Source: a virus (taxonomy: Duplodnaviria > Heunggongvirae > Uroviricota > Caudoviricetes). From it: DNA of 64,000 bases. The stretch's first letter is position 1, and each line of letters opens with the position of its first letter. Shown here piece after piece: positions 5,601 through 54,762 of this stretch. Made by a program: the position numbers and the translations under genes. The notes beneath the pieces are model-generated. The model saw only the letters and a list, made by a program, of their open reading frames with translations, was not told the DNA's origin and ran no database searches. Location: the IMG/VR virus record IMGVR_UViG_3300044715_000866. The stretch is one strand, 5' to 3'.

Positions 5601-8600
5601 CAACTTTAAGCCATGAATTGTCTGCTAGTGTTGTAGCTCTTGCATTAAATTGGAAAGTTACTGAATATCCGGTTGCGTTAGTTGACGAAGTTGGTAACGG
5701 AGATGTAAGTACTGTAGATGTAGTACCTAAAATTTCAGCTCCCGGATTAACAGATTCTACAGGATCAGTTGGGTATAACACAGTTATTCTATTAACAGAT
5801 ACTCCTTCAGATGCAGTTGTATCTACATACACCGGAGTAGATAATTCAACTGATAAATCAGCAGGTGTTATAGGTTGAAGTTCATCTGGAAGATGTAAAT
5901 TTAAATCCGGAATATTAATATATCCAGAACCACGATAAACAATTTTAATTTCAACAATTTTAGTATCAACAATCTTACATACTGCTTTTGCTTGTTTTGT
6001 ATATCCTCCGCCATCGATTGTAATTGTCGTACCATCAGGATATCCAAGACCGCCATTTACAACAGTTATTGTTTTAACATTTGCCGCAGTTGATGCTCTA
6101 ATTTGAGATCCTGCAGGAACCCAACATGACGGACTAACTGTAATAGTATGATTTGGAATATCAACTTCTTGAATAATTGCACCAACGCCACTAATTGATT
6201 CTACTGCCGAGGTCACAACCATGCCAACCTTAAATCCATTAGTTGAACTAATTGTTAACGTAGTTTGATCTAATACACCAACAACTTGATAAGAACCGTT
6301 ATAGTCACTTAATGCGTTATCGTTAACTGCAATATTAAGATAACCGTCAACTTTTGGTAACACATTATCTTTATTATACGGAACATCAAACGTTACGACT
6401 GTAGCAACTACGCTGCCGTCTTGCAATGCCTTACTATGATACGACATTGCAGGTAATGTATAGTCGTCGGCACTATTATTTGTTATTGGAACACTTGAAA
6501 TTTCAATATATCCGTTACGTGTAGATCCAAATGTAACTGAGTAATTATTAATTGCAGTACCGACTGTATCTCTAACTGTTACAACTGCAATAGCCGGGTC
6601 TTCGCTATTAATTACTACATTATCAACATACCCAGTAAGTGTGATAGTAGTTCCATTTTTTACTACAAAATAATCAGAAATATTAATTGTGCCTACAGTA
6701 CCACTAACTGTTAGTATATTACCAACATAGCTAGTACATGTTCTACTAACTGCAGCAGTTGGTTGTACATATTGCAAAATTTGATGTATTCTACCATTCC
6801 ATGCTGTAATATAGGTTTGTTTGTTAAGTTGATCTATTACTGCAATTTGTGTAATTGGAATTACTGCAAGTTTAGTATCACTTACTTTATACCCTTGGGT
6901 TGCATTTGTAAACGAAACTTCGCCTGATGGTGTTACCGACGGTGCTGCCTCTAATGATGGTTCAACTGTTGTTAACACAATCTCAAATTTACCAGCATCT
7001 ACACCTGTTTTTGCAACTACAGATTGGACTATTTGTCCAGCAAACCCAATACCAACAATTGTTTGACCTACTGCAATGGTAGTACCAGCTGCAACGTTAT
7101 TAACGACAATCGTCGTACTTGATGTACTACCTGATACAACAGTTGCAGTAATAGTGTTAGACGGATCGCCGTTGATGATATTAGTAGGATCGATCATAAT
7201 ATTGTAATATGCAAATGAATTATCACTTTGTAAAATTGCAATATTTGGATCTAATAGCTCACCGGTTGATTCTGCTAAATTATAAGCAACGATACGATAT
7301 ACATCATTTAAGTTATCGTTATATTGCAATGCAGTAGACGGTCTAGTTGGTTTAACGTTATCAATGTTATTAAACTTAACATTTTTTAATACACGAATTG
7401 ATACTACTTGTCCATCATACAACGCTTTTGCTAATCCTGAACTTGCAGTGTTATTATCGCCTGATGTACTTAAATTAAGTTTAATTACAATTATGTTGTT
7501 TACCCGAACAGTAGTATACTCAACTGATGTAATAATATAGTTAGTAATAATACCACCGTTTGCACTATGGTCAATTTCTAATCCCGACCCGGTAGTTGGA
7601 ATATACTCATACGCATGTACCCATACTGCAACTGCAGGAGTAGTAGCAGTAGGCACCATCTCGTTAATAGTTTCACCTTGTTTATAAACTTTTGCAGTTT
7701 GCAACATATGATTTGCTAAGTTTGCACTATCTGGTAATTCAGTAACATCAAACCCTGAAGCACGCATACCATAGTTACCAAATGTGTTTGAACACCCGAC
7801 ACCACGTAAATTACTACCGTTATTTGCCCAGAACCCGGTATGTGCATAATATGTAAATGTACACACTTGTTCAGTAAATGCACCGTTAGATGCTACTATA
7901 CCATAACCTAAATCGTTAAACATTGCAAAGTCATTTGCTAACATTGAACGATTACCACCGGTTTCTAAATTAATTGTTAAATCTGCACCGTTGTTTAAAA
8001 AATCAGTTACTTGTTTAGCAATCCCAGTAGGACCTGTAATATCTAACCCAGTGTATGCAGTTGTATTAACATTACTTGGCAACGTAGGCCATTCTACTGT
8101 AGGTAAGGTTGATGCTACATTTGGATTTGAATTTACATAATCAATTACTATATTAACTAGCGTAGTAAGGGTTAAATCAAATGTACTATCAGCAGCTAAT
8201 GTTTGAATTTGATTTTCTTTATTGCCACGGGTTGGAGTTACTTCAACACCTTTAACAATTGATGTTAAAATATTACGTAATCTTATGTATGCTGTTTGAC
8301 ATACTGATTGCACATCTCCATCTAACAATACTGATTCATATAAATTTGAATTGTTTTTAGAAAATAACGACGTAGCATAATCAACTGTTTGGCTGTTACC
8401 GCCATAGAAAATATCATATGTAATTGCATCAACTAAATAGCCAACATCACGTTCACTCTTTTGTCTATTATAGTTAGGCAACGTGCTTAACACATAATTA
8501 TCTGAAATATACGCAGTTATTTCAGCTTTAATAAACGGTTTATTAATTTGAAGAATATCACGAGCTTTATTTTCATTTAGTGTTTTAGATGCCCAAACAA

Positions 8601-11600
8601 AGTCTAATGTAGCACTTACACCGTTAACTAACATACTTGTTATAAGTGTACTTGATAAAGTTAACCCGGGAATTTCAGCATTTGCTAATTCGATCGATTT
8701 CTCAATTCCTGCTTTAGTTAACCCTTGAAGCTCTCCAATTAACAAACTAGAAGATAGTCTTAAGAATGCTCTACCTGCATGTATTGCACGATAATTAGTA
8801 CCTAATATCGCATCAGTAACTACTGCATCAATTACATACCCTGCATCGCGTCGTGCCTTTACTTCATCGTACACTAAATTGTTTGATATTGGATTATACA
8901 TATACGGCGTTGTAGTATCTAACGTTAACGTTACTGTTTGAGTAGCAGCATTAAATTCAACAATGTCGTCAATTTGATAACGCTTTCCTCTAACATAAAA
9001 CGAACATGGCGGTTGTGGAGGTCTAACATCAAGTCCGCTGCTTTGACCAAACACAATTTTACCAGACGGCGTACTATCTGCAACTGCACTTAATACCACT
9101 GTAGCATTAGTCGATGGCGCAACTGGTAACGTTACACTTACAACATATTGTCTACTTTCAAATCCAGTACCTGTAATTTTAACACCTGGTTTTAATCCAA
9201 CAATGTTAACGATATTATTAACAACCATAGTAGTTGATAATCGTCCGCCACTTACATATGTACCAACTGCACTAGTTGTACCTTGTACTTTAATTGTAAG
9301 ACCTAAGTCAGTAATCTCTTTAATAGTGCCGTATACGCGACCTGCAAATCCGTCAATATATTGTCCACCTGCAAATCGTTTATAGTTGTTACTTTGTGAA
9401 AAACTAGAACATTCTTGAATGTACGGTGATTTAGTTTTAATGTTACCTTCTGGATCTAGAACCATTGCAAAGCCGCCTTGACCTTGGAACGTTACACCAA
9501 TAATACGATTACCTTCATTACATAAGAATACGTCAATTTCTTTATTATTTTTAGCAGGACTTGTTACATCTAATGGATTAGTTAAATAATGACGTCCGTA
9601 GTTAATAGTGTCAAACAAGAACCAGTTGCCGGCTAGTTTAGTAAATGCAGTTTCAAACGGATAAATTACCGTACAGTTCATTGTGTTACCACTAACTGAA
9701 TCAATAACTGCTTTTCCTCTTTTCTTATTGCCACCAGCAGGTATAACATTATCAGTAAACACTTTACCTACCCAACTTAATAATGCTTGGTAATTATTAC
9801 TTAACGTGATAATAATTTTACCACTAACACCGTCAAGCGTAGCAGTAATACCTAAAGAGACTAACGGTGCCGAATTTGAAGCATAATCAATAAGACCTAC
9901 TTCTAACGCATCAATAATTGCATCGCGATAGAAAAATACTCTACGCCACGGGCTTTGACTTTCTCTATCGATTGGACGAATAAGTGTTCTACGCATCTCG
10001 TCACCGCGAACTGAAACGTTTGCTGGAATTTTTAACGGAAAGTCTTCGTAATATATTCCGCTTTCTATAAATACTGAAAGATTTAAATCTCGTACTGTTT
10101 CACCAAATTCCAATTCTTCGCCTACTTTAAAGAAACCGGGTTTAGTTAATCGAACTTGTATTCTGTCTTTACCTGTTGATATTTCAGGTGTGTATTTTAC
10201 AATGCTAGCATACGCCCCTGATGCAGTTAAATTAGTTGACACCCGGCCAACTCCGACAATTATCTTAGCAGGAAAAATATCATTGCTTTTTGGAGCACCT
10301 TGGTCAACATAACCCTTACCGCCGTTGTCAATATCAATATTCCAAATTGCAGTACCGTGCGACGGCGTGGCTGCAAAACTAACACCGTAACGGATTATGT
10401 CTAATACACTATCTAAACTATCAGTAAATATTGCAGTAGCTTCATCTGAAATTTCAGACAGATAGCTGCCAACTACTCCAATGCTACTTGATGGTAGTAT
10501 TGCAGTTGATGAAAACGCAGTAAGCTGAGTTTCAGCTTGTTGGTATCGAACTGCTGTGTAACCTGTTAATACCTCTATACCTAAGTTTTTTGCAAATGCA
10601 ATACCGTCAAAAGATTGAACATAATGTGTGCCAATTGCAACTGATTTCGCGCTTGAGTTTTTGTAAAAACTTTTACCTGCAGTTATTGATTGCCAGTTTC
10701 CACCGGTAATAATATCTATTGCGGCTGCATCAACTATTAGTCCAATATCGCGATAACATAACGATTCATCATAATTAAATCCACCGCCAAACGCAGTATT
10801 AACATAATCAATAGAGGTATTTTCAATTACTTCGGCATTATTATTAATAATAACCTTTAAACTAATTGCATCAATGTATGTTCCACCAGTAAATATAGTG
10901 TCATCAACTGGGATACCCATATATAAGTCATTATCAATTGCAGTAGCTGCAGCTGTAAATTTTGTACCAATAAGGGTTGACGTTGCATTAGTATCATCGT
11001 CGTCGCTATGTCCGTTAACGATAGTTCTAGCGTATAACGAAGTTTTACTAATAACAGTTTTTGTAATAGCCGGCGTGCTAACTATTGTCATTTGATGTGC
11101 AGCTGCAACCGATGCTGCTGTCCCGCCGTACGTAATATCATAACATACTGAAATAATTAGTTTCCTTAAATCAACTGCTAATATAGCTAAAACATCTACG
11201 TCAGTGATACTTTCATCAATATCTAAATATGAGTTAACATCATTAATAATACTAGTAATAGCAGCATTATCTAAACGATTACGTGCGTTACGAATCCAGC
11301 CATTTGGTAGCGGTTGTGTAGTGCCGCCAGTTACATATGAATTTACTTCAACATTAATATCTGGATATCTTGGTAACTCTGTCGGAAGTTCACCTGACTT
11401 AATTATTGTGTCAATTTCAACAAACAACGCGTTAATTCTTTCTAAATAATTAGGATCGTTAATTACTGGGTAGAAGTGATCCATATACCATGATGCTGTA
11501 GTAGTAACATCTGAATTTGTGCCAACAGTGTATATAGATTTATCTAATTCTAATGCTGTAAAAAATGTTATTAAATCAGGTGTCCCAGCAGCAGAATTTG

Positions 11601-15035: not shown

Positions 15036-15066
15036 AAAAAAGGCAGCCTAAGCTGCCTTTTTTATT
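15036..15066. terminator. Bidirectional rho-independent terminator between convergent genes.
   Basis: The sequence is aaaaa aggcagc ctaa gctgcct ttttt. It has a 7-bp GC-rich stem flanked by an A-run and a T-run. Confidence 0.7.
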
Positions 15067-15598
15067 ATCCTGTATATCTACAATGGCTCTTCTTTGTTTC
15101 CCACAGCTCAACTGCAGTAACCTTTGCTACATCACCAATGCGTGATTGTGCATATTCAAACAAATACTTACAGATGTTTTCACTAGTTGGTACAAAATCT
15201 ACTAGTACAAAACTGTTATAATGTAACTGCTCACCTTCAGTTAATCCGACCCAGTTGCAAGTTCCTAAGTTAGTAAAGTTTGCAAATGGGTGTTCTGAAT
15301 TCCTCCATTCGTTACCTGTAATTAACTTAAAGTTTGGATCATTAATATCAATCATAAACTTATGATCTAGCACATCATCTACAAATTGTTTCATAAAGTT
15401 TAAATTCTTAAAGTCTGTAACCATTTCTGAATGATCTAAAGTATCAGAACCTAAAAATACTTTAATTGAATAGCTGTGTCCGTGTAAATGCTTGCAGGCA
15501 CAGTCAGTTGAAATACTTAACTCAACATGATTTAATTTTTGTGCCCATACTCTGTGTCCCATTTCAAAATGAAACTCTTTATCTATTTCCCATTTCAT
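15065..15598 (-). CDS. queD: QueD/PTPS-family 6-carboxy-5,6,7,8-tetrahydropterin synthase (T-fold).
   Basis: EFHFEMGHRVW aligns with the QueD N-terminal FEAAHRL motif. CKHLHGHSY matches the Cys-x3-His-Gly-His zinc/catalytic motif, and VLDHKFMID matches the LDHxxLND block. Its own sigma70-like promoter lies on the minus strand at 15626-15654. Confidence 0.8.
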   Translation of the reverse strand: MKWEIDKEFHFEMGHRVWAQKLNHVELSISTDCACKHLHGHSYSIKVFLGSDTLDHSEMVTDFKNLNFMKQFVDDVLDHKFMIDINDPNFKLITGNEWRNSEHPFANFTNLGTCNWVGLTEGEQLHYNSFVLVDFVPTSENICKYLFEYAQSRIGDVAKVTAVELWETKKSHCRYTG

Positions 15599-20556: not shown

Positions 20557-20585
20557 TTGACATTCTCCATTACTTACTATATAAT
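20557..20585 (+). promoter_or_regulatory. Consensus sigma70-type promoter (TTGACA-N17-TATAAT) upstream of the clamp-loader gene. The -35 hexamer sits in the loop of a 10-bp hairpin (20546-20572).
   Basis: The sequence is taatggagaa cttgaca ttctccatta cttacta tataat. Confidence 0.6.
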
Positions 20586-22669: not shown

Positions 22670-24310
22670 ATGACTAACACTGATTGGGCAACTAATGTTG
22701 CCCTATCATCTTATACAGATGATGAATTTAATTTAGGTATTTGTGGATCGCATGACGCCTCAATTGCAATATCAAAAGGGAATAAAATCTTAGAAGTAGT
22801 TGAGATTGAAAAATTCACTGGAGAAAAACATGCTAATTTAATATTTAATACTGAAACACAAAAAGATATTAATAGCCACATTATTACCGAAGTATTAACT
22901 TACTTTAGACGCAAGTATCAAGCTAACACATATAACACTGTTTTTTGGAACTTGGTCTGTTACCACAACCAATGGTTAATGGATGACTTACCTACAGAAA
23001 TTAAAAACTTGTTCCCTTCGCGGAATTTTAAAAGATTTAGCCATCACTTATCACACGCATCAAGTGCATTTTATCAATCGCCGTATAATCGAGCATTAAT
23101 TATAACATTTGACGGCGGAAGCGATGAAGGATTATTAAATGTATATATCGGTAATGGAACTGACGATTTAATTCATTTATATAGTAATACTCGTAATTAC
23201 TGTGTTCCTTATGCAGTAATAGGCCATTTCATTTACGAGATTAAAAATGAACCAATCTATCAAATGGGGCAATTTACGTATCCGGGTAAAATGATGGGAT
23301 TAGCCGGGGACGGAGAAGTAGCTGACGATATTGAGCAAAATTTTACAAACTATTTCGAAGAAGTTGCAACTGCTAACTTACAAATACCTGAATTAATAGA
23401 TTGCTTTGCAAAACATATGAATATTTCAAATTCAGTACAGGCGAGTAAAAATACTGCAAAAACATTTGCCGCCACTGCTCAAGTAGTATTTGAAAAATTG
23501 CTACATGAAGAAATTGGTGGGTTCTTAAAGGCATCACACGGGTTGCCGATTGTGTTGTCAGGCGGTGGTGCATTGAACATTATAAACAATTCAAGAATAG
23601 CAAAATCTCATAAAGTATTTGTTCCGCCTAATCCGAATGATTCAGGGATTGCAATAGGATTGTTATGCAATGGTATTCGACCAAAAGAAAAGATAGATTG
23701 TGCATACCTTGGTCCAGACGCATTAGATAGCAGTACGTTAGAAGATGTTGTAGCGTTACGTAACGGCACTACTGTTGATCTAAATAAGCTTGCTGATAAT
23801 ATCATTGCAGGTAAAATTTATGGCGTAGTCCGAGGCCGATCTGAATGTGGGCCAAGAGCATTAGGTAATCGAAGTTTGATATGTAGTGCAATTATTCCTG
23901 AAATGAAAGATATCTTAAATTCTAAAATTAAAAATAGAGAAAGTTTTAGACCGTTTGCACCAGTTGTAAGATTAGAAGATGTTCACACATATTTTAAAAG
24001 TAAAGATGAATTAAGATTTATGTCATTTAATGTTGAAATTCATAAACAGTATGAATCACTATTATATGCAGTATCAAGTTCAGACAATACTGCTAGGGTA
24101 CAAACAATTACTCGAGAACAAAATGAATTCTTATACGATTTATTAACACTATTAGATAAAAAAGTCGGACATGGTATTTTGCTAAACACATCGTTTAATC
24201 TTGATGGAAAACCGATTTTAAACAAATATGCCGATGCATTAGACGTATTAGACACTAAAGATATAGACGGTGTAATCTTTGAAAATTATCTTATTGAAAA
24301 ATCAAAATGA
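22670..24310 (+). CDS. NodU/CmcH-family carbamoyltransferase.
   Basis: The N-terminal Kae1/YgjD-like block is LGICGSHDASIAI. The C-terminal hallmark GRSECGPRALGNRSLI matches GRxEFGPRALGNRS. The 546-aa length fits the family. Confidence 0.85.
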   Translation: MTNTDWATNVALSSYTDDEFNLGICGSHDASIAISKGNKILEVVEIEKFTGEKHANLIFNTETQKDINSHIITEVLTYFRRKYQANTYNTVFWNLVCYHNQWLMDDLPTEIKNLFPSRNFKRFSHHLSHASSAFYQSPYNRALIITFDGGSDEGLLNVYIGNGTDDLIHLYSNTRNYCVPYAVIGHFIYEIKNEPIYQMGQFTYPGKMMGLAGDGEVADDIEQNFTNYFEEVATANLQIPELIDCFAKHMNISNSVQASKNTAKTFAATAQVVFEKLLHEEIGGFLKASHGLPIVLSGGGALNIINNSRIAKSHKVFVPPNPNDSGIAIGLLCNGIRPKEKIDCAYLGPDALDSSTLEDVVALRNGTTVDLNKLADNIIAGKIYGVVRGRSECGPRALGNRSLICSAIIPEMKDILNSKIKNRESFRPFAPVVRLEDVHTYFKSKDELRFMSFNVEIHKQYESLLYAVSSSDNTARVQTITREQNEFLYDLLTLLDKKVGHGILLNTSFNLDGKPILNKYADALDVLDTKDIDGVIFENYLIEKSK

Positions 24311-45101: not shown

Positions 45102-45130
45102 TTGACAAATTGATACAAATATAATATAAT
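45102..45130 (+). promoter_or_regulatory. Consensus sigma70-type promoter (TTGACA-N17-TATAAT) downstream of the polymerase gene.
   Basis: The sequence is ttgaca aattgatacaaatataa tataat, followed by RBS aggag and the ATG at 45152. Confidence 0.65.
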
Positions 45131-45889: not shown

Positions 45890-46305
45890 TGATAGACATT
45901 AGAAAAGCATTAAAATTATTAGATATCATATATGTAAACGACAACGAGAGCATTAAATCGTCAGTTGATAAACTAACAATGTTAGCGCAATTAGATATGC
46001 CATCTTATGCTATGCCAGGACCGTTTGAACAGTTTTATGTTGATTACGAATACATGAAACAACGTGTGCAAGGACTTGAATCGAGATTAACCACACTTGA
46101 AGATTATAATCGAAACCCATATACAAATTACACTGTTAATTCGCATATAGTTGGCCATGTTACTACAAGTCCGCAGTTTGTAAGTGCATTTAACAGAATT
46201 ACACAATTAGAAACTGAATTACAAGTTACTAAAACGTTACTTAGTAAGTTATTAACCCCAGAACAGGAAGAAGATGAATCGGAACTTAACAGCAACACAG
46301 AATGA
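45889..46305 (+). CDS. Hypothetical coiled-coil protein (138 aa).
   Basis: TAATG-coupled ORF. Confidence 0.5.
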   Translation: MIDIRKALKLLDIIYVNDNESIKSSVDKLTMLAQLDMPSYAMPGPFEQFYVDYEYMKQRVQGLESRLTTLEDYNRNPYTNYTVNSHIVGHVTTSPQFVSAFNRITQLETELQVTKTLLSKLLTPEQEEDESELNSNTE

Positions 46306-48169
46306 TTATGCTGTATTCCTACCAGCAACGTCGGGTTTTTACTCAACGTTTGTCGGAAAACAACGTTACGGCAATTATGTTGAACCTTCACGTATTCCTG
46401 CATCATTTAAAGCAGGCGTAGAAGGTCTTAATTACTTAGAACCAGAAAAAGGTGAATTTTATTACAGATGGTGTTTGTATTCAGCAGGGCATGCAAACTT
46501 AGACTTGACTAAGCCTGACGAAAGCGAAGACATGTTTCGTAATAGAGATAGAAGCACTAGTTGGGTATTAGGTGACTCGGGCGGTTTCCAGATTGGTAAA
46601 GGCGTATGGGAAGGCGAATGGAGAGATCCTAACAGTGCAATAGTACAAACAACCATGGCTGATTGCATTGCTAAAGGTATTGAAACTGTTCCTGTACTTG
46701 ACTCAACAGGAAACCCAGTAGTTAACAAAAAAGGTGTTCCTAAAACTACTAAAATTGATCACGTTAAACTATATCAAGCTCGGTTAGATGCTGCTCAAAA
46801 GAAAAGAGAGCAAGTATTAGCATGGATGGATACGTTAATGGATTACGGAATGGTACTTGATATTCCGGCATGGGTCGAACGAAGTCCTGCAGGTAAACTT
46901 GCAACTGGTATTACAAGTTATGACGAAGCAGTTGATGCTACAATTTATAACAATGAATACTTTATGAAACACCGCAATGGTAACTGTAAATTCTTAAACG
47001 TATTACAAGGTGAAACCCATACACAAGCTGACGATTGGTATAGTAAGATGAAAGACTTTTGTGATCCTGCTATATATCCAGATACACACTTTAACGGGTG
47101 GTCAATGGGTGGTCAAAATATGTGTGATGCCGAACTAGTACTTAAACGTGTAGTAACATTAAAATTTGACAACTTGTTACAAGAAGGCAAACATGATTGG
47201 ATGCATTTCTTAGGAACCAGTAAATTAGAATGGGCATGCTTTTTAACTGATGTACAACGTGCAGTGCGTAAATATGTTAATCCAAAATTTACTATTAGTT
47301 ATGATTGTGCTAGTCCGTTTTTAGCTACTGCAAATGGACAGGTGTATATTACTACTGAATTAGACGATAGATCTAAATGGGTATATCGAATGGTGCCAAG
47401 CGTTGACGATAAAAAATATGCACAGGATTCTAGACTATTTAAAGATGCAGTAATACAAGATGGTATTTTTAGTGTGTTTGATCCAAGTCCATTAATTGAT
47501 CAAGTAGCAATTAAAGACGTGTGTATATACGGTCACGGTGTTCCTAATTGGACAGAAGTTAATAACGATAATGTTGATCATGCTAACCTATTTACAGATC
47601 CAAAATATTTAAATGATCCTAAATACTGGATAACATTAGGCGATGCAAATAAAATTAACAAGATTGGTAAAACTAGTTGGGATAGTTTTAGCTATGCTAT
47701 TTTAATGGGGCATAATGTGTGGAGTCACGTTAATGCTGTACAAAAAGCAAATGAAGCTTACGACAACGGTATAATTCCTCGAATGTTAATAGGCGAAAAA
47801 ACTCAACCGTATGTTGTTAGAGATATTATTGACCGGATTATTGCGTGTGATGATAGAACCGTTGCTATTAAGATGATTGAAGATCTTGAAAAGATATGGA
47901 TGGCTATTCCGGGCACTAGAGGTAACACTGGCAAAAACATAGTTAACAACGAAACTACTACTACTACTAATTATGTAGCCGAATCAATTATTACAGAAAA
48001 AGTTGAAAAAATTAGAAAAGTGTTATTAACAGATCTTACATCACAAGTTAACAACTTATTTGATTTTGATGACAATATTACAGAAGAAGTAGAATCCGAT
48101 GACTATGAGTTTTCTGAAGAAGACGAACTTACCTTATCTAACCTAGAAGATAGCATTAAACATGAATAG
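46274..48169 (+). CDS. dpdA: tRNA-guanine-transglycosylase-like DNA transglycosylase (DpdA-like) with a long acidic C-terminal extension.
   Basis: VLGDSGGFQIGKG matches the TGT catalytic-Asp motif (T/L)DSGGFQ. The length of 631 aa exceeds the ~400 aa typical of DpdA/TGT. The C-terminus is DDYEFSEEDELTLSNLEDS. RBS aggaag. Confidence 0.7.
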   Translation: MNRNLTATQNDYAVFLPATSGFYSTFVGKQRYGNYVEPSRIPASFKAGVEGLNYLEPEKGEFYYRWCLYSAGHANLDLTKPDESEDMFRNRDRSTSWVLGDSGGFQIGKGVWEGEWRDPNSAIVQTTMADCIAKGIETVPVLDSTGNPVVNKKGVPKTTKIDHVKLYQARLDAAQKKREQVLAWMDTLMDYGMVLDIPAWVERSPAGKLATGITSYDEAVDATIYNNEYFMKHRNGNCKFLNVLQGETHTQADDWYSKMKDFCDPAIYPDTHFNGWSMGGQNMCDAELVLKRVVTLKFDNLLQEGKHDWMHFLGTSKLEWACFLTDVQRAVRKYVNPKFTISYDCASPFLATANGQVYITTELDDRSKWVYRMVPSVDDKKYAQDSRLFKDAVIQDGIFSVFDPSPLIDQVAIKDVCIYGHGVPNWTEVNNDNVDHANLFTDPKYLNDPKYWITLGDANKINKIGKTSWDSFSYAILMGHNVWSHVNAVQKANEAYDNGIIPRMLIGEKTQPYVVRDIIDRIIACDDRTVAIKMIEDLEKIWMAIPGTRGNTGKNIVNNETTTTTNYVAESIITEKVEKIRKVLLTDLTSQVNNLFDFDDNITEEVESDDYEFSEEDELTLSNLEDSIKHE

Positions 48170-48686
48170 ACAGTATAATAACATAACTACTAACACTGCT
48201 AAGTTTTTTGTTGGCAACGAAGTAGAACACACACCAGCATATAGTTTAAAAACATTGTTTGTTGTTGGCGCGCAAACTACAGAAGCAATCCATTATCGGT
48301 TAGATGCTGAAGAAGATATTACACATATCTTCTTTGGTGCAAACCATAGTTTTAATCCAAATACACCAGGTGCATGGCTCAATTGGAATAACATTATCGA
48401 GCACTTTTTAAAATTAGGCAAACAGTGTTCATTAGATATTCCATTTACAGTAGTAAACGATTTTAATAATAAAACTAATTTATGTTCATATGCAAATTTT
48501 ATTCCTCAAATTAGAATTCCGGTTGCAAATATTAAAGATTGGAGTTATAATACAATGATAAAATTAGATGACATAGATTTTAACGCAACTAATCCCGGGG
48601 TGTGGACACATAACTTAAAAGCATTGCAAAATGACGATGTGTTTACTAGCTGGACTGACTATAACAACGACAATATAATTAAATGA
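48162..48686 (+). CDS. Hypothetical protein (174 aa).
   Basis: ORF overlapping the dpdA stop. No motif recognised. Confidence 0.5.
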   Translation: MNRQYNNITTNTAKFFVGNEVEHTPAYSLKTLFVVGAQTTEAIHYRLDAEEDITHIFFGANHSFNPNTPGAWLNWNNIIEHFLKLGKQCSLDIPFTVVNDFNNKTNLCSYANFIPQIRIPVANIKDWSYNTMIKLDDIDFNATNPGVWTHNLKALQNDDVFTSWTDYNNDNIIK

Positions 48687-49042
48687 CAGATACACAAATG
48701 ATATGGGTTTCTTTTAAGAAAGAAGGAATTCACCATTACCCTGATGCATTAACTAACCCTAACTTAATAGATGTATCTTTTTTAGGACATCCACATAGAC
48801 ATATATTTCATTTTAAAGTATGGATAGAAGTTACGCATTCTGACAGAGACATTGAGTTTATACAATTTAAACGATGGTTAGAATCATTGTATATTAGTTC
48901 AACATTATCATTAGATAACAAAAGTTGTGAAATGATAAGTAATGATTTATCATTAACAATTAGAAATGAATACCCTAATAGGGCAATTTGGATTGAAGTT
49001 TCTGAAGACGGCGAAAACGGATCATTTATTAAGTATTTGTAA
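48683..49042 (+). CDS. Second, divergent QueD/PTPS-like T-fold protein that lacks the catalytic Cys.
   Basis: VSFKKEGIHHYPD aligns with QueD FTFEAAHRLPH. LGHPHRHIFHFKVWIEV aligns with LHGHNYKVEVTV, but there is no Cys upstream of the H-x-H. Confidence 0.45.
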   Translation: MTDTQMIWVSFKKEGIHHYPDALTNPNLIDVSFLGHPHRHIFHFKVWIEVTHSDRDIEFIQFKRWLESLYISSTLSLDNKSCEMISNDLSLTIRNEYPNRAIWIEVSEDGENGSFIKYL

Positions 49043-49043
49043 T

Positions 49044-49256
49044 ATGAAACATTTTGTCTCAAAAGCTATGCTTGAACAACAGATTAATCGGTTACGCCAA
49101 GAGATATCAGACTTTGAAATCCAACATATGAAATCAGTTAACCCTAAACTTAAAAACGTATTACACATTAAACAATTAAGAAATCAACTGTACGATTTGA
49201 AGGAACAACTGCTAATTCGTACTAAACAAACTATATTAAAAAACGGAAGAAAATAA
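49044..49256 (+). CDS. Hypothetical coiled-coil protein (70 aa).
   Basis: ATG at 49044 directly after the upstream stop. The track's 48966 start is an overlapping extension. Confidence 0.45.
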   Translation: MKHFVSKAMLEQQINRLRQEISDFEIQHMKSVNPKLKNVLHIKQLRNQLYDLKEQLLIRTKQTILKNGRK

Positions 49257-49257
49257 A

Positions 49258-49512
49258 ATGGCTAAAAATTACAAAACATTCTCATACTTAGAATCACGTC
49301 CAGATGTTGTTAAAATCTTTGAAGATTTAGAAGCATTCCATGACTTTTGCAGAATTGAGTTACGTAAATTTGATCCAGCAGATTTATATCGTAAAGATAG
49401 TAAATCATACGGTGCTTACATTGCTAGTAAACGCCCTCGTAAACCATATCAAGGTAATAAACCTTGGCCAAACGGTGTTAGACCCAAAAACACATATCAA
49501 AAAAAATCTTAA
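49258..49512 (+). CDS. Small basic protein (84 aa).
   Basis: ORF followed by the hairpin at 49527-49546. Confidence 0.5.
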   Translation: MAKNYKTFSYLESRPDVVKIFEDLEAFHDFCRIELRKFDPADLYRKDSKSYGAYIASKRPRKPYQGNKPWPNGVRPKNTYQKKS

Positions 49513-49524
49513 TCTTATTTTTAA

Positions 49525-49548
49525 CTGAAAGCCCTACGGGGCTTTCAC
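49525..49548 (+). terminator. Stable hairpin without a U-tract, a possible terminator or RNA processing element.
   Basis: The sequence is gaaagccc tacg gggctttc. Confidence 0.3.
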
Positions 49549-49561
49549 CGCAGGACATATT

Positions 49562-50659
49562 ATGAAATTAAAACCTACTATTTGGATATTTGCTATTGAA
49601 CCATTAGATACTCGATATACTAAACAATGGATCGAGCATATTCCATCACAACTTAAAGAACACGTTGGTGATTACAACATTGTACAAATTACTGGTGATC
49701 AACAAGACTCAGAAGTAACACCGGGTGCATTTTTAAACTTTATAGATACTAACATTTGGAAAGGATCACAGCTTGTTGGTTTTTTAAAAAACTATAATAA
49801 ATCTTCAACTAATGATCATTTCTTATTTACAGATGCATGGAATCCGGCAATTATAAACTTAAAGTACATTAAAGACTTAATGAGATTAAATTGGACATTT
49901 CACGGGTTGTGGCACGCAGGTAGTTATGATAAACACGACTTTCTAGGTGCTATTGATCACGGGTGGGTTAAACTAGCTGAAAAGAGTTATTATGCAGCAT
50001 TTGATCATAATTACTTTGCAACTGAATTCCACGTGCGTATGTTTATGGAACAATTATTAAACAACGGAATGACTAGTGAAAATCCGTGGTTTGAAGAAGA
50101 TTGGGATGAACGTTACGACGATGGTAAAATTGTACGCACTGGTTGGCCAATGGAATACTTAGCAGACGAACTAGCGCCGTATGCTAATAAAGAGAAACGT
50201 GATTTAATTGTATTTCCACATAGAGTTGCTAGCGAAAAACAAGTTGATATTTTTAAAGCATTAGCTCATCAATTACCACAATACGACTTTGTTGTATGTC
50301 AAGAACAAAAGCTAAGTAAAGATGAATATCACAACCTGTTAAGCGAAGCAAAGATCGTGTTTAGTGCTAACTTACAAGAAACATTAGGCATTAGTTGTTA
50401 TGAAGGTGCGTTACTTGGTGCTATTCCAATGGTTCCTGATAGATTAAGTTATAAAGAAATGTATATGTATCATTTTAAATATCCATCAGAATGGACTGCT
50501 AGTTATGCAGACTACGAATCACACAGTTATGATTTGTGTAACAAAATTATCCATTACATAGAAAACTATAATGATATTGTACCATATGTTAAACAACAAG
50601 CCGATTACTTAGCACTGGAATTTTTTAATGCAGGAGATTTATATGACAAGTTTAAATGA
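49562..50659 (+). CDS. Putative GT-B-fold glycosyltransferase (GT4-like C-terminal domain).
   Basis: LIVFPHRVASEKQ...KIVFSANLQETLGISCYEGALLGAIPMV resembles the GT-B C-terminal E-x7-E sugar-donor-binding region (EGFGLxxLEAMAxGxPVV). Confidence 0.5.
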   Translation: MKLKPTIWIFAIEPLDTRYTKQWIEHIPSQLKEHVGDYNIVQITGDQQDSEVTPGAFLNFIDTNIWKGSQLVGFLKNYNKSSTNDHFLFTDAWNPAIINLKYIKDLMRLNWTFHGLWHAGSYDKHDFLGAIDHGWVKLAEKSYYAAFDHNYFATEFHVRMFMEQLLNNGMTSENPWFEEDWDERYDDGKIVRTGWPMEYLADELAPYANKEKRDLIVFPHRVASEKQVDIFKALAHQLPQYDFVVCQEQKLSKDEYHNLLSEAKIVFSANLQETLGISCYEGALLGAIPMVPDRLSYKEMYMYHFKYPSEWTASYADYESHSYDLCNKIIHYIENYNDIVPYVKQQADYLALEFFNAGDLYDKFK

Positions 50660-51062
50660 TACAATAACAACATCATCTGGGTGTGATACAATTACATTTA
50701 ATATGGATGGAGATCCAACACGTTACAGTATACCAGCTTTTGATACTATTACACTTAGTGACTATGTATCTAGTTCAACTGCTAGCGGAATATACAATGG
50801 AACAATGCATGGTACTGCTCCGTACACAATTAGTAATTCTTCTACTATTGGAATTAATGGGGGGTCATCTTATTACACCGGCACTGGTGGTTATTGGAAT
50901 CAATCATATAACGGTAAACCATTTGAAGATAACTTTCCAGAATGGAATGCATTTAGAGAGTTGTGTGATGAATATCCAGGATTAGAAAGAGCATATCAAA
51001 ACTTAAAAACTTTTTATACTATGTGCCATGCAGATAGTTTATTACCAAAGGACGATAAATGA
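50643..51062 (+). CDS. Hypothetical Ser/Thr/Gly-rich protein.
   Basis: RBS aggag before the ATG at 50643. The track's 50628 start is an in-frame extension. Confidence 0.5.
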   Translation: MTSLNDTITTSSGCDTITFNMDGDPTRYSIPAFDTITLSDYVSSSTASGIYNGTMHGTAPYTISNSSTIGINGGSSYYTGTGGYWNQSYNGKPFEDNFPEWNAFRELCDEYPGLERAYQNLKTFYTMCHADSLLPKDDK

Positions 51063-51589
51063 AAGTAGTAAAATACAGTTGGAAACAATTAGAAGGCGCA
51101 GCATTGGAGATTGCACGTCAAATACAAAAAGATAACTGGAAACCAGATTACATTGTTGGAATTACACGCGGTGGACTTATTCCTGCAAACTTACTTAGTC
51201 AGTATCTTGGAGTTAAGATGTTAACATTACACGTTAGTTTACGTGATCATCCGGATGATAACGAACACAATGCATGGATGGCATGTGATGCATTTGGAAT
51301 TACTGATGACGAACTAGCAAGTACCGGACAAGCTAAAAACATCTTAATTGTTGATGACATAAATGACTCAGGTGCAACCCTTGATTGGATTAAAGAAGAT
51401 TGGAAATCATTGTGTTTACCAAATGACATAAGATGGAAACACGATGTATGGCATAAGAATGTAAGATTTGCTACAATATTTGATAATAGTGCTAGTAATG
51501 CACATGTTGATTATTGTGCAGAAGAATTTGATAACCGAGACGATCCAATTTGGATTGACTTTCCATGGGAAAACTACTGGAAGAAATAA
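51059..51589 (+). CDS. Type-I phosphoribosyltransferase that most resembles xanthine-guanine PRTase (Gpt).
   Basis: [22 protein letters not shown] aligns with Gpt [36 protein letters not shown] is the PRPP-binding loop (Gpt VIDDLVDTGGTA). [15 protein letters not shown] aligns with Gpt TWIEQPWD. It is 176 aa against Gpt's 152 aa. Confidence 0.7.
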   Translation: [176 protein letters not shown]

Positions 51590-51921
51590 TGGAACTACAT
51601 TCAATAGCTAAGAAACACGGTATACGAAGCATAGACGTTGAACAATTTTATGCTGCAGGTGATAACTATTCGTTAGATTGGTCAAGATCAAACCTACCAA
51701 GCGAAAGAGCAAACGTTACACGGTCATTAACTGTTAAAATACACGAGAACGATTTTATAAAGTTAATTGACAAAGCTGAAAAGTGTGAAGACTGGAATAA
51801 AAAATATTATGAAGATATGTATGTTAGAGATTCTAATCCAACTGTAAAAGCAGCATACGAAAAATATCAAATGTTTTTAGAAATAGCAAGATCGGAAGTA
51901 CACAATGACAGACTTAACTAA
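51589..51921 (+). CDS. Hypothetical protein (about 110 aa).
   Basis: TAATG overlap at 51587-51591. Confidence 0.5.
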   Translation: MELHSIAKKHGIRSIDVEQFYAAGDNYSLDWSRSNLPSERANVTRSLTVKIHENDFIKLIDKAEKCEDWNKKYYEDMYVRDSNPTVKAAYEKYQMFLEIARSEVHNDRLN

Positions 51922-52066
51922 AGAAGAACTACAAGAAAAGATTTTACAAGTAAAACGTGATATTTCTAAACATAGCGATTCAAGTAATCCACGTATATTA
52001 TTAGGCCTTCAAGAATATGTAAATTATTTAGAAGACGAATTAAAAACATTGACAAATAAACAGTAG
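51905..52066 (+). CDS. Possible 53-aa coiled-coil micro-protein (MTDLTKEELQEKILQVKRDISKH...).
   Basis: ATG-initiated ORF below the track threshold. Its 3' end runs into the folE promoter. Confidence 0.3.
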   Translation: MTDLTKEELQEKILQVKRDISKHSDSSNPRILLGLQEYVNYLEDELKTLTNKQ

Positions 52067-52077
52067 TGTTGTATAAT
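52049..52077 (+). promoter_or_regulatory. Consensus sigma70-type promoter (TTGACA-N17-TATAAT with a TG-extended -10) upstream of folE.
   Basis: The sequence is ttgaca aataaacagtagtgttg tataat. Confidence 0.65.
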
Positions 52078-52103
52078 ACACACTTACAACTAGGAAATTA
52101 TAT

Positions 52104-52775
52104 ATGAGCTTTAATAAAACAAAAACCGATTCAGAATTAGGTTTAGAAATACACAATCATTTAGTAAGTTTAGGAGTAGAAACTCCGGTAACTGAAAAAA
52201 TATTAACATCATCAGAAAAGATTAATATCATTCAGGACAAGTTTTATGATATTATGGTAACTTTAGGTTTAGACTTAACAGATGACAGTTTAGCAGACAC
52301 TCCTAAACGTGTTGCAAAAATGTTTGTCAACGAAATATTTTGGGGTCTTGATTATGATGCGTTTCCCAAATGTACTACTATTCAAAATAAGATGGGATAC
52401 AATGAAATGTTAATTGAACGCAACATTAACGTACAAAGTAACTGCGAACATCACTTTGTAGTAATTGACGGGTTTGCAACAGTAGGTTACATTCCAAAAG
52501 ATGTTGTACTTGGATTAAGCAAAATTAATCGCGTAGTTGAATACTTTGCAAAACGTCCACAAGTACAAGAAAGATTAACAGAACAAGTATTCCATGCACT
52601 GGAATACATTTTAGATACTGATAATATTGCAGTAGTAATTGATGCAAAACACTATTGTGTTGCTGCAAGAGGTGTAGAAGATACAGGTAGCACTACTATT
52701 ACTAGTAAGTTAGGTGGTGCATTTAAAAACGATCCAACTACTCGTGCAGAATTTATGAGTATTGTAAACAAATAA
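52104..52775 (+). CDS. folE: GTP cyclohydrolase I.
   Basis: CEHHFVVIDG and QVQERLTEQV are FolE signature blocks. Length is 223 aa. The gene has its own consensus promoter. Confidence 0.85.
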   Translation: MSFNKTKTDSELGLEIHNHLVSLGVETPVTEKILTSSEKINIIQDKFYDIMVTLGLDLTDDSLADTPKRVAKMFVNEIFWGLDYDAFPKCTTIQNKMGYNEMLIERNINVQSNCEHHFVVIDGFATVGYIPKDVVLGLSKINRVVEYFAKRPQVQERLTEQVFHALEYILDTDNIAVVIDAKHYCVAARGVEDTGSTTITSKLGGAFKNDPTTRAEFMSIVNK

Positions 52776-52783
52776 GGAGAGTT

Positions 52784-53236
52784 ATGAAAGACTTAAAACC
52801 ACAAATTCCAGCAGTAGGCATTATGAAAACAAGTGACTGGGGTAACAGTAAAATGTATAAAATTCAATGCACATGCGGCAACGACGATGACAATATTGAG
52901 TTTATGATTGAGGCAGATGATCTTAATATGATTACTGTAACTACATTTACAACACAAAAAACTGCGTACTGGGATAGACCATTTGATGTTTCGAACACAT
53001 ACAAAATTAAAAATTCGTTTTTAAGCAGTATTGCATACGAAACATTGAGCTTTCTTAACGGGTTTCAGCATCGTATTAAAATGACATGGAATTTGTGGTT
53101 TAATGGTTATCTTAAATATCAGCAATCAACTATAATGACTGAACAACAGACATTAAACTATGCAGAAACATTGAAGGCTGCAGTTAATGATTGCAAAGAT
53201 TTTCGTAAACAAGATAGGGCAACTAATCTTAAATGA
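52784..53236 (+). CDS. Hypothetical protein (150 aa).
   Basis: RBS aaggag. No clear motif. Confidence 0.5.
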   Translation: MKDLKPQIPAVGIMKTSDWGNSKMYKIQCTCGNDDDNIEFMIEADDLNMITVTTFTTQKTAYWDRPFDVSNTYKIKNSFLSSIAYETLSFLNGFQHRIKMTWNLWFNGYLKYQQSTIMTEQQTLNYAETLKAAVNDCKDFRKQDRATNLK

Positions 53237-53257
53237 GGTAGTTTTAAACCCTTAACA

Positions 53258-53265
53258 TATAAATA
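53258..53265 (+). promoter_or_regulatory. T4-type late-promoter box TATAAATA upstream of the GIY-YIG candidate.
   Basis: An exact TATAAATA lies 18 nt upstream of the ATG at 53283. Confidence 0.4.
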
Positions 53266-53282
53266 AGTGTAGAGGAACTATT

Positions 53283-53933
53283 ATGAACTACTTAATGATT
53301 AAAAAATGTATGAATACCGGACTTAAATATCTGTGTAAAACAAGCGGTAACAAAAATCCTTATTTATATACCGGATCCGGAGTTAGATGGTTGCACCATA
53401 TTAAGAAACACAAATCACATATTATAACTTGTATAATAGGTGAATATAATACTAAAGAAGAATTGCAAGAAGCAGGTCTGCATTATTCTAAATTATATAA
53501 TGTAGTAAAAGATTACACCTGGGCAAATTTAACAGAAGAAAAAGGCGACGGTGGATTAATAGGTAACGGACAATTAGGTAAAACTTGGAAAATTAAAGAT
53601 ACATCTAATATGAATAAACCAAAAACTAAAACAGATGCTTGGTATGAAGGTAAAAAAAAGACTGCTGGTAAAAACAACTATCAATTTAAAGGTCAAATAA
53701 AGACCCCATGGGGTCTTTTTGATACAGGTTTAGATGCTATTACAGAAGGCAAACGATTAAGAGAATTAGGAAATACAGAAGTAATTACAGATGGCAATAC
53801 TTTAAGAAAGTATTTACATTCGTTAGATACTGTGTTAAACTTACAAGGCAGGCGAACTCCAAAAACTTGGAGAGGTAAAACGCCAAGAGAAATAGGTTTT
53901 GAAATAATAAAGGATACAGATGTCAAAAATTAA
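53283..53933 (+). CDS. Seg-like GIY-YIG homing-endonuclease candidate.
   Basis: LKYLCKTSGNKNPYLYTGSGVRWLHHIKKH aligns with I-TevI GIYQIKNTLNNKVYVGSAKDFEKRWKRH (GIY...YIG...R..H). It is followed by a Lys-rich, probably DNA-binding tail. A TATAAATA box lies at 53258-53265. Confidence 0.5.
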   Translation: MNYLMIKKCMNTGLKYLCKTSGNKNPYLYTGSGVRWLHHIKKHKSHIITCIIGEYNTKEELQEAGLHYSKLYNVVKDYTWANLTEEKGDGGLIGNGQLGKTWKIKDTSNMNKPKTKTDAWYEGKKKTAGKNNYQFKGQIKTPWGLFDTGLDAITEGKRLRELGNTEVITDGNTLRKYLHSLDTVLNLQGRRTPKTWRGKTPREIGFEIIKDTDVKN

Positions 53934-54762
53934 GATATCAGAAATATTTTACTCTCTACAAGGAGAGGGTAGATTTATGGGAGTGCCAAGTGTGTTCCTT
54001 AGAACGTTTGGGTGCAATTTTTCTTGTAGAGGGTTTGGAATGCCAGCAGGTGAACTAAGTGTACAAGCAGATGCGATTGCTAATAATGGTATACAATATC
54101 ATTCATATGATGAACTACCATTAGTAACTACTGGCTGTGACAGTTATGCAAGTTGGCATCCAAAGTTTAAACATCTAAGTCCAGCGATGTCAATAGACGA
54201 AGTTGCAGCTAAAATGATTGAGCTGTTACCTAACGGTGAATGGGGTGGAGTACACTTAGTAATTACAGGCGGCGAACCATTATTACCAGGTTGGCAACAA
54301 ATATATCCAGAATTACTAAGACATCCATTATTAGCAGACTTAAAAAACATTACATTCGAAACTAATGGTACACAAGAACTGTTACAAGATTTTGAAAACT
54401 ACTTATACATGGAAAGACGGTATCAAACTACGTTTTCAGTTAGTCCTAAACTAAGTGTAAGTGGCGAGCCTAGAGAAAAGGCAATACGTCCTGAAATAGT
54501 AACCGAGTATCAGTTTTCAGGGCATAGTTCATTTTTAAAATTTGTAGTAGCATCTGAAGAAGACGTAGAAGAAGCGCGTGAAGTAATGCAGCTATATAAA
54601 GACAACGGATTTAGAGGTGATATTTACTTAATGCCAGTAGGCGGTGTAACTGATGTATACAACCTTAATAATCGACGAGTAGCAGAACTTGCATTAACGC
54701 ACGGATTGAGATACAGTGATAGACTTCACCTCCCTCTCTTCGGTAACAACTGGGGAACATAA
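53920..54762 (+). CDS. queE: 7-carboxy-7-deazaguanine synthase (radical-SAM QueE) with a long insertion inside the cluster-binding Cys motif.
   Basis: ISEIFYSLQGEGRFMGVPSVFLRTFGCNFSC aligns with QueE EIFxTIQGEGxxxGxPxxFVRxxGC. The third Cys (TGCDSY) lies about 38 residues downstream. Confidence 0.8.
   Translation: MSKIKISEIFYSLQGEGRFMGVPSVFLRTFGCNFSCRGFGMPAGELSVQADAIANNGIQYHSYDELPLVTTGCDSYASWHPKFKHLSPAMSIDEVAAKMIELLPNGEWGGVHLVITGGEPLLPGWQQIYPELLRHPLLADLKNITFETNGTQELLQDFENYLYMERRYQTTFSVSPKLSVSGEPREKAIRPEIVTEYQFSGHSSFLKFVVASEEDVEEAREVMQLYKDNGFRGDIYLMPVGGVTDVYNLNNRRVAELALTHGLRYSDRLHLPLFGNNWGT

Follow-up and report, generated by a model that had tools for sequence, protein, structure and literature searches.

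A probable QueC-independent, DpdL-type 7-deazaguanine DNA-modification module in a giant phage related to PA5oct

Introduction

The 64,000-nucleotide stretch of tailed-phage DNA held in IMG/VR as record IMGVR_UViG_3300044715_000866 (Caudoviricetes; this whole stretch is hereafter called the window) encodes FolE, QueD and QueE, the enzymes that lead to 7-carboxy-7-deazaguanine (CDG), together with a 631-amino acid protein resembling the guanine transglycosylases that exchange bases in nucleic acids. QueC, the enzyme that takes CDG to preQ0, is missing from the window. The question raised by this locus is what becomes of CDG when QueC is absent, and which base is finally placed in the DNA. An earlier note on the same DNA had proposed a 7-deazaguanine DNA-modification gene set and had left three ways out, namely a base of the CDG type, a neighbouring gene replacing QueC, or a queC gene lying elsewhere in the genome.

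The proposal of such a gene set is supported here by the identification of FolE, QueD, QueE and the transglycosylase-like protein. As for the missing QueC, it finds its explanation in the second QueD-like protein of the locus, which is DpdL and would take CDG toward 7-deazaguanine (DG). Our reading, to which we give a probability of about two in three, is that a giant phage akin to the Pseudomonas jumbo phage PA5oct carries here a DNA-modification module of the DpdL type, which makes a 7-deazaguanine independently of QueC, and that the base produced is probably 2'-deoxy-7-deazaguanine (dDG) or a derivative of it. PA5oct (Wroclawvirus) is the closest cultured relative, and many window proteins are syntenic with its proteins at 26-60% amino acid identity. 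Bases of the 7-deazaguanine type are a phage defence against restriction enzymes, and DNA that carries them is itself the target of modification-sensing nucleases. The branch that runs through DpdL to dDG is the least understood of the 7-deazaguanine pathways.

DpdL and the fate of CDG

Two QueD-like proteins had been noted in the window. One of them, encoded at 15065-15598, is indeed QueD (see below), whereas the other, a 119-amino acid protein encoded by the open reading frame (ORF) at 48683-49042 (plus strand), is by its signature and its homology DpdL, a QueD paralogue and proposed CDG decarboxylase. DpdL was defined as a QueD paralogue in which the CxxxHGH motif is replaced by LxxxHRHxF, and decarboxylation of CDG to 7-deazaguanine was proposed as its reaction; the phages that have it encode DpdA, FolE, QueD and QueE and lack QueC (Hutinet et al. 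2023, PMC10516641). In the window protein the signature reads LGHPHRHIF (nt 48782-48808). Comparison with a small local database gave 56% identity to the DpdL of Acidovorax phage ACP17 (E 9e-48) and 32% to CGPG_00067 of Cellulophaga phage phiST (E 6e-16), and identity to EST35_0318 of PA5oct was 52%. When all phage records were searched by tblastn, ACP17 was recovered at E 3e-38 and phiST at E 4e-8. The ORF also matched PHROG 17812 (E 3e-34) and gave no match to Pfam PTPS. Its genomic context is the one described for DpdL, with FolE, QueD, QueE and a DpdA-like protein present and QueC absent from the window. In the DNA of phiST dG is missing altogether, and dDG amounts to 302,000 per 10^6 nucleotides (PMC10516641). 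Taken together, the homology, the signature and the dDG of phiST argue for a DpdL-type, QueC-independent branch and not for an incomplete preQ0 pathway.

A base derived from CDG, of the dCDG type, was one of the possibilities offered previously. The idea of a CDG-derived base survives in essence; of the two candidates, however, dDG has more support than dCDG, both from the presence of DpdL and from the example of phiST. Insertion of CDG itself, with DpdL doing something other than decarboxylation, keeps a small chance. It would suit a FolE, QueD and QueE pathway that ends at CDG and a DpdL activity that is unproven, and in a queC-deficient host the DpdA2 of phage VH7D can put CDG into DNA, if with low efficiency (PMC10516641, Table 2). 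However, phiST and its relatives, the only DpdL phages with measured DNA, have dDG and no dCDG. DpdL is, besides, kept next to the transglycosylase region in 33/33 related loci. These counts come from a set of 80 IMG/VR loci, each of which encodes a protein 53-69% identical to the transglycosylase. The loci were scanned with hidden Markov models (HMMs) built from the window, PA5oct, ACP17 and phiST proteins, and presence was counted on the 33 that were long enough to judge (6 kb or more downstream).

Absence of QueC

The statement of the earlier note that the window has no QueC was confirmed. A six-frame search found neither the P-loop motif SGGxDS nor the looser [ST]GGxD[ST], tblastn of E. 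coli QueC against the window gave nothing better than E 0.47, and the Pfam QueC family was absent among the 40 window ORFs scanned, which include every ORF of 177-890 amino acids. The tblastn query was 100% identical to a database record and detects 305 phage records, down to 26% identity. The QueC HMM, which scored 1e-24 to 1e-61 on four control phages, found no match in the 80 related loci (0/33 in the counted set). QueC was also not found in PA5oct, for which positions 1-285,999 of 286,783 bp were covered (best tblastn E 2.0).

One PA5oct protein, EST35_0433 (203 amino acids), has an SGGIDS PP-loop and was considered as a hidden QueC. It was rejected, being TilS-like (HVNHG motif), with QueC tblastn values of E >=2.0 throughout the positions covered. 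EST35_0433 is the only PP-loop ATPase of PA5oct and lies ~6 kb downstream of the tRNA cluster of the phage, three members of which bear the annotation Met(CAU).

Replacement of QueC by a neighbouring ORF, the second of the three ways out, was not supported, since none of the neighbours has a PP-loop. The ORF at 48162-48686 was rejected as a substitute, having no PP-loop and no detectable family. Those at 50628-51062 and 52784-53236 were rejected as core parts; they match no family and are kept in 27/80 and 15/80 of the related loci, respectively.

There is also a slender chance that a canonical queC, or a Gat-QueC fusion, lies beyond the window and that the locus belongs to an ordinary preQ0, 7-amido-7-deazaguanine (ADG) or G+ system. 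The window is 64 kb of a genome that is probably >200 kb, and its close homologs stand on contigs of 211-373 kb, which leaves room for such a gene. Yet no QueC was present in the covered part of PA5oct, whose sole PP-loop protein is TilS-like, or in the 80 related loci, and the published DpdL phages lack it as well (PMC10516641). DpdL and QueC would, moreover, compete for one substrate. As judged from these sequences, QueC appears to be bypassed and not replaced, the pathway branching at CDG toward 7-deazaguanine and not toward preQ0.

FolE, QueD and QueE

FolE, QueD and QueE were confirmed, at the positions first proposed for them, by matches to Pfam, NCBIfam and PHROG families. FolE (GTP cyclohydrolase I; 52104-52775, plus strand) matches Pfam GTP_cyclohydroI at E 2e-60 and the NCBIfam equivalog with 315.6 bits (cutoff 202), and is 62% identical to the FolE of ACP17. 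QueD (6-carboxytetrahydropterin synthase; 15065-15598, minus strand) is set apart from the main block by ~31 kb. It has a Pfam PTPS match of E 1.5e-28 and the canonical CxxxHGH motif in the form CKHLHGH (nt 15476-15496), and it is 44% identical to the QueD of PA5oct. QueE (CDG synthase, radical SAM; 53920-54762, plus strand) matches PHROG 2076 'QueE-like radical SAM' over its full length at E 1e-58, and the NCBIfam QueE models gave E values of 1e-12 to 1e-14, all below the cutoffs. Its radical-SAM cluster motif, canonically CxxxCxxC-D-T-x-Y, is split into C32-x3-C36 and, ~36 residues further on, C73-D-S-Y. The QueE of PA5oct (EST35_0322; 33% identity) has the same cluster-loop insertion, of ~41 residues, whereas the QueE proteins of ACP17 and phiST are without it. 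By the established enzymology of these families, FolE, QueD and QueE together convert GTP to CDG.

The transglycosylase

The gene for the DpdA-like guanine transglycosylase (46274-48169, plus strand) encodes 631 amino acids that form a TGT-fold core, a C-terminal helical region and an acidic tail. The ORF contains LGDSGGFQ (DSGGFQ at nt 46574-46591). The predicted structure is a TGT-type (beta/alpha)8 barrel with a predicted local distance difference test score (pLDDT) of 89.8, and its best structural match is a solved DNA insertase, DpdA (7ui4), at a sequence identity of 15%. Sequence searches gave no Pfam, NCBIfam or PHROG match (none to Pfam TGT, PF01702, at E up to 0.01); phmmer against the PDB was also empty, and a family profile of 61 sequences found no sequence in the PDB. 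Residues D101 (in DSGGFQ), H311, G314 and D344 (in SYDCASP) are invariant in 61 homologs with 26-88% identity to the window protein. D101 and D344 align with the DSGGLQ and ISYDS motifs of DpdA2 and, by analogy, would have catalytic roles.

When compared with the described viral DpdA subfamilies by HHalign, the family was nearest to DpdA2 (ASD50403 of ACP17 plus VPFG_00171 of nt-1), with a probability of 96.6% (E 6e-10) over 191 columns that span DSGGxQ, LD, QG, HxLG and SxDS. For DpdA3 (phiST) the probability was 78.7% (E 1.7e-5, 90 columns only), and for DpdA1 (SeppeHuegi plus phiSM) and DpdA4 (HVTV1_69) 0.8% and 0.05%, respectively. On the family profile, the ACP17 DpdA (ASD50403) scored 27.8 bits and the phiST DpdA3 16.4 bits. 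Pairwise, phmmer of the PA5oct transglycosylase (EST35_0316) against the ACP17 DpdA2 gave E 0.045-0.09, and ASD50403 matched VPFG_00171 at E 1e-50. We equate VPFG_00171 with the published DpdA2 of Vibrio phage nt-1 because of where it lies and because it has a DSGGLQ motif. From these comparisons we place the 631-amino acid protein in the DpdA family, as a deep clade of its own to which DpdA2 is the closest subfamily. The likeness to DpdA first suspected from DSGGFQ is thus borne out by the modelled TGT fold, by DpdA as the best structural match and by DpdA2 as the nearest profile.

The TGT fold is shared with enzymes that act on tRNA, and a role of the protein in modifying the tRNA of phage or host, not DNA, had to be weighed. 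We regard such a role as scarcely tenable. The CxCxxC zinc motif is absent from the 631-amino acid sequence and no Cys is invariant in the 61-homolog alignment, the best structural match is a DNA insertase, and the nearest sequence relatives are phage DpdA2 proteins. The gene lies between those for the DNA polymerase and a FEN/RNase H protein, and Rfam and tRNA scans of the window found nothing. The DNA of PA5oct itself resists restriction, which suggests a modified G; no transglycosylase is named in the paper that reports this (PMC12191111). Because of the fold, the conserved Asp residues and the position within a block of replication genes, the protein may be proposed to carry out base exchange in DNA, and this proposal has indirect support from the DNA-insertase match of the model, from the replication block and from the restriction resistance of PA5oct.

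The last ~45 residues of the protein (~48026-48169) are strongly acidic (EEVESDDYEFSEEDELTLSNLEDS), with an LFDFD motif ahead of them. Confidence in the model is low at residues 553-572 and 585-609. The PA5oct homolog also ends in an acidic tail. Such a tail recalls the replisome-tethering tails of the T4 and T7 single-strand binding proteins, and the gene is placed just downstream of the DNA polymerase gene.

The transglycosylase family is very large, with >7,500 clusters when these are drawn at 90% identity and 873 when they are drawn at 50%. No Pfam domain occurs in the best 120 clusters listed for it, nor in the best 120 listed for either of two partners described below, a 174-amino acid orphan protein (~2,800 clusters at 90%) and a glycosyltransferase (at least 8,000 clusters at 90%). 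These three families, all of them very abundant in metagenomes, are large blind spots of standard annotation. A very abundant clade of uncultured jumbo phages carries the DpdL branch together with a transglycosylase that is invisible to standard annotation.

Conserved order of the module

The genes had been described as scattered among unrelated ORFs and not forming one operon. Variable ORFs are indeed inserted between them, and the scattered look is due to these insertions, but the relatives keep the module genes in one order. This order is constant in the related loci: transglycosylase, 174-amino acid orphan, DpdL, 365-amino acid glycosyltransferase, phosphoribosyltransferase (PRTase), FolE and QueE. 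The orphan and the glycosyltransferase, like DpdL, were present in 33/33 loci, the PRTase and FolE each in 30/33, and QueE in 26/33.

PA5oct carries nine genes of this kind, encoding FolE, two QueD-like proteins, QueE, DpdL, the transglycosylase, the glycosyltransferase, the PRTase and the orphan. In its record, the homologs of the transglycosylase (EST35_0316), glycosyltransferase (EST35_0317), DpdL, orphan (EST35_0364) and PRTase are all annotated 'hypothetical protein'. The same label is borne by EST35_0258, a second QueD-like ORF ~2 kb from the annotated QueD, which scores above the annotated gene on the QueD profile.

The glycosyltransferase, the orphan and the phosphoribosyltransferase

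The glycosyltransferase (49562-50659, plus strand; 365 amino acids) is linked to DpdL and has, in its predicted structure, the two-Rossmann fold of the GT-B (GT4-like) class. Among cultured phages, 17/17 near-full-length homologs (query coverage >=80%) belong to genomes that carry DpdL, adjacent to the DpdL gene or <4 kb from it, and they represent five lineages: PA5oct-like, ACP17, Phosso, Xanthomonas BUDD/X1 and Burkholderia BCSR5. In Sinorhizobium phage Phosso the DpdL and glycosyltransferase genes overlap by 4 bases and stand beside those for the DNA polymerase, FolE and QueE. The Phosso homolog of the 631-amino acid transglycosylase is encoded ~170 kb away from this pair, so the link between DpdL and the glycosyltransferase is tighter than that with DpdA. 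A protein annotated as 'glycosylase' upstream of the Phosso DpdL was tried as a homolog of the orphan and rejected, as it gave no HMM match.

The orphan (48162-48686, plus strand), which stands between the transglycosylase and DpdL in the related loci, has 2,779 homologous clusters and no Pfam or PDB profile match. Its invariant residues are E20, E22, H55, H62, C89, D92, Q116, R118, K134, D136 and D137, and this set of Glu, His, Cys and Asp looks enzyme-like. Homologs were found in PA5oct and in ACP17, where the gene (ASD50402) is directly upstream of dpdA.

These partners raise the possibility that the base is decorated further, with the glycosyltransferase, perhaps together with the orphan, adding a sugar to the deazaguanine before or after its insertion into DNA. 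The GT-B/GT4 fold, the restriction of near-full-length phage homologs to the close neighbourhood of DpdL in five lineages, the Phosso pair that is kept although the transglycosylase is far off, and the presence of the gene in every counted locus speak in favour of this. There is also a precedent, since the glycosyltransferase HuiG acts on a 7-deazapurine base in huimycin biosynthesis (bioRxiv 10.64898/2026.04.15.718813), and the failure of dpdL and dpdA alone in E. coli (PMC10516641; see below) would fit a need for further enzymes. On the other side, 7-deazaguanine has no hydroxyl, so that N- or C-glycosylation would be required, and phiST reaches 100% dDG without this glycosyltransferase. Several DpdL phages, among them RHph_I1_18, Aeromonas Ahp1 and Vibrio Bakedbeans, have no detectable homolog of it. 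The evidence is one of association, and the enzyme could also have an unrelated target, for instance a protein or a glycan of the host. We consider a sugar-bearing base unlikely, if well worth keeping in view.

The PRTase (51059-51589, plus strand) is a type I purine phosphoribosyltransferase, similar to xanthine/guanine enzymes (Pfam Pribosyltran, PF00156, E 1e-16, 61 bits with a cutoff of 26.3). Its best NCBIfam match is XPRT (E 1.6e-16, below the cutoff), it belongs to PHROG 8995, and EST35_0321 of PA5oct is its homolog at the corresponding place. Its presence allows for a different, pre-replicative route, in which the PRTase would couple CDG or DG to phosphoribosyl pyrophosphate, as TubE and ToyH do in the tubercidin and toyocamycin pathways; the phage DNA polymerase would then build in the nucleotide once it had been reduced and phosphorylated, and the TGT-fold protein would have an auxiliary role. 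A type I PRTase is kept in the module in 30/33 loci and in PA5oct, the tubercidin pathway joins CDG, a PRTase and a decarboxylase without QueC, and a supply of dNTPs is the simpler way to imagine how all G comes to be replaced. Nevertheless, a transglycosylase with invariant, presumably catalytic Asp residues is kept in every locus and would be superfluous for such a route, and the DpdL blocks of ACP17 and phiST have no PRTase. The family match to xanthine/guanine phosphoribosyltransferases fits salvage of released guanine equally well, and according to the published view the known deazaguanine DNA modifications are all post-replicative (PMC10516641). Pre-replicative entry is therefore held to be rather improbable.

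Proposed pathway

In the preferred reading, that of a DpdL-type module acting on DNA, FolE, QueD and QueE would turn GTP into CDG, DpdL would divert CDG from the preQ0 branch by the proposed decarboxylation to DG, and the 631-amino acid TGT-fold protein would swap guanine in DNA for DG. This predicts dDG, or a base derived from it, as the product, and DNA that resists restriction enzymes with G in their sites, as has been published for PA5oct. Our best guess for the PRTase is that it recycles the guanine freed by base exchange to GMP and GTP, the precursor of the pathway itself. The glycosyltransferase and the orphan might be accessory factors that the reaction needs, or they might be enzymes for a further decoration of the base.

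Several points weigh against this pathway. The decarboxylase activity of DpdL is a proposal only, for any member of the family, and dpdL plus dpdA of either phiST or ACP17 gave no dDG in E. coli, where other enzymes are possibly needed, as suggested by Hutinet et al. (PMC10516641). The transglycosylase is tied to DpdA2 by profiles only, and Pfam TGT touches no more than 2 of its 61 homologs, at E 0.04. The identity of the modified base is a prediction, here as in PA5oct, and the glycosyltransferase and PRTase in the module suggest that the route or the end product may differ from plain dDG. In addition, the 80 related loci belong to one viral clade, so that the conserved order reflects in part shared ancestry, and in the source genome, probably >200 kb, the QueC search covers the 64 kb of the window.

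The homologs of the orphan and of the glycosyltransferase flank dpdA in ACP17, whose dpdL and dpdA failed in E. coli, and for this reason both proteins are candidates for the missing components. A bolder version may be put forward with reserve. According to it, the DpdL pathway of this clade, PA5oct, ACP17 and Phosso goes beyond dDG, the glycosyltransferase and the orphan are working parts of it (missing or tailoring enzymes), the PRTase closes the loop from guanine to GTP, and the 631-amino acid protein represents a fifth viral DpdA subfamily. We hold this version to be doubtful. If its tailoring part were true, the DNA would contain a sugar-bearing 7-deazaguanine, which is not among the eight derivatives described so far; if the product is simply dDG, the module is a useful but ordinary extension of the 2023 discovery. 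The prediction is directly testable in PA5oct, a cultured phage that shares this gene set and resists restriction at G-containing sites.

Comparison with known systems

In kind the system was known before: 7-deazaguanine DNA modification in phages has a DpdL/dDG branch, and this was described in 2023. What differs is the transglycosylase clade, which is not assigned to DpdA1-4, and the three conserved partners, of which no description was met in the literature found.

The block of phiST (FolE, QueD, QueE, DpdL and DpdA3; Hutinet et al. 2023, PMC10516641) follows the same logic, that is, a CDG pathway plus DpdL and a DpdA-family protein without QueC. There too the module adjoins the DNA polymerase region, and the DpdL proteins share LxxxHRHxF. 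The phiST DpdA3, by contrast, has 259 amino acids and is only weakly related to the 631-amino acid protein, as the HHalign comparison indicated. Homologs of the glycosyltransferase, orphan and PRTase are missing from the phiST block, which has instead a MazG-like protein and also contains a P-loop kinase-like protein, read as such from the sequence GEICSGKDT. Finally, the 100% dDG of phiST was measured, whereas the product here is predicted.

ACP17 has a contiguous block of QueD, FolE, ASD50402, DpdA, ASD50404, DpdL and QueE. It resembles the window in having homologs of the orphan (ASD50402), the glycosyltransferase (ASD50404, 36% identity), DpdL, FolE and QueE. It differs in its DpdA (ASD50403), a clear DpdA2 that is only distantly related to the 631-amino acid protein, in the absence of a PRTase from the block and in being a 156-kb T4-like phage. 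The two extra ACP17 genes are undiscussed in the literature found, and the string 'glycosyl' occurs nowhere in PMC10516641.

PA5oct shares the transglycosylase clade (34% identity) and has the glycosyltransferase, DpdL, PRTase and QueE in the same order. Its FolE and QueD genes, on the other hand, lie together ~55 kb away and its orphan ~27 kb away. The chemical identity of its modification is unpublished in the literature found.

Two systems from bacteria were also compared. The tubercidin cluster of Streptomyces has the CDG branch point, a PF00156 PRTase (TubE) and a decarboxylation without QueC; it is, however, a nucleoside-antibiotic pathway with a UbiD-family decarboxylase in place of a T-fold QueD paralogue, and it has neither a transglycosylase nor a DNA target. 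This resemblance is regarded as a lead and not as membership. The bacterial Dpd system (DpdA, DpdB and DpdC; DpdA 7ui4) inserts preQ0, needs DpdB and modifies <0.1% of G (PMC10516641), and no equivalent of DpdB or DpdC was identified in the window.

Transcription units

Each gene had been credited with a sigma-70 promoter of its own, and this was not supported. Two perfect sites of the form TTGACA-17-TATAAT were found in this region, both on the plus strand. The first (45102-45130) occupies the gap between the stop of the DNA polymerase gene (45093) and the next start (45152), and the unit that runs from 45152 onward holds the genes for the transglycosylase, the orphan, DpdL, the glycosyltransferase and the PRTase. 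The second (52049-52077) is in a 37-bp gap before the FolE start at 52104 and precedes a second unit, from FolE through QueE to the FEN/RNase H gene. The ORFs of the transglycosylase, orphan, DpdL and QueE each overlap the preceding one. The two perfect promoters in gaps and the overlapping ORFs together point to two transcription units. Looser, promoter-like sites were not enriched between 42 and 57 kb (78 found, with 71 +/- 9 expected from shuffles). The exact TTGACA-N17-TATAAT sequence occurs five times in the window (at 20557, 29649, 41860, 45102 and 52049, all on the plus strand), where 0.17 occurrences were expected; hence, the phage evidently uses the primary sigma factor of its host for these units.

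Between FolE and QueE there is an ORF of 216 amino acids (53283-53933), the end of which is overlapped by QueE. It matches no family and is absent from 80/80 related loci. It is probably a recent insertion and possibly a gene of a mobile element.

The source phage and other observations

The window has a G+C content of ~35% and the gene content of a large tailed phage. Its genes include those for a family-B DNA polymerase, a clamp loader, PhoH, DnaJ, the FEN/RNase H protein and ThyX. A search for near-identical DNA among the INPHARED phage genomes gave no match to the window. The identical 631-amino acid protein is present on several metagenome contigs, and JGI 3300042887 and SRR27428893 are examples of metagenomes that contain the phage. 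Because close homologs of the window genes are found on metagenomic contigs of 211-373 kb, the source phage is considered a member of an uncultured jumbo-phage clade.

A very long ORF of 3,835 amino acids (2641-14148, minus strand) resembles in size and position the 3,857-amino acid virion protein EST35_0128 of PA5oct, and gave no tblastn match in PA5oct at E 1e-5. A carbamoyltransferase of the NodU/CmcH type is encoded at 22670-24310 (Pfam E 5e-54) and is 43% identical to a protein of Synechococcus phage S-SCSM1. PA5oct has no homolog of it; homologs occur in 142 phage records, mostly of marine cyanophages along with some jumbo phages, and this distribution gives a hint of an aquatic origin.

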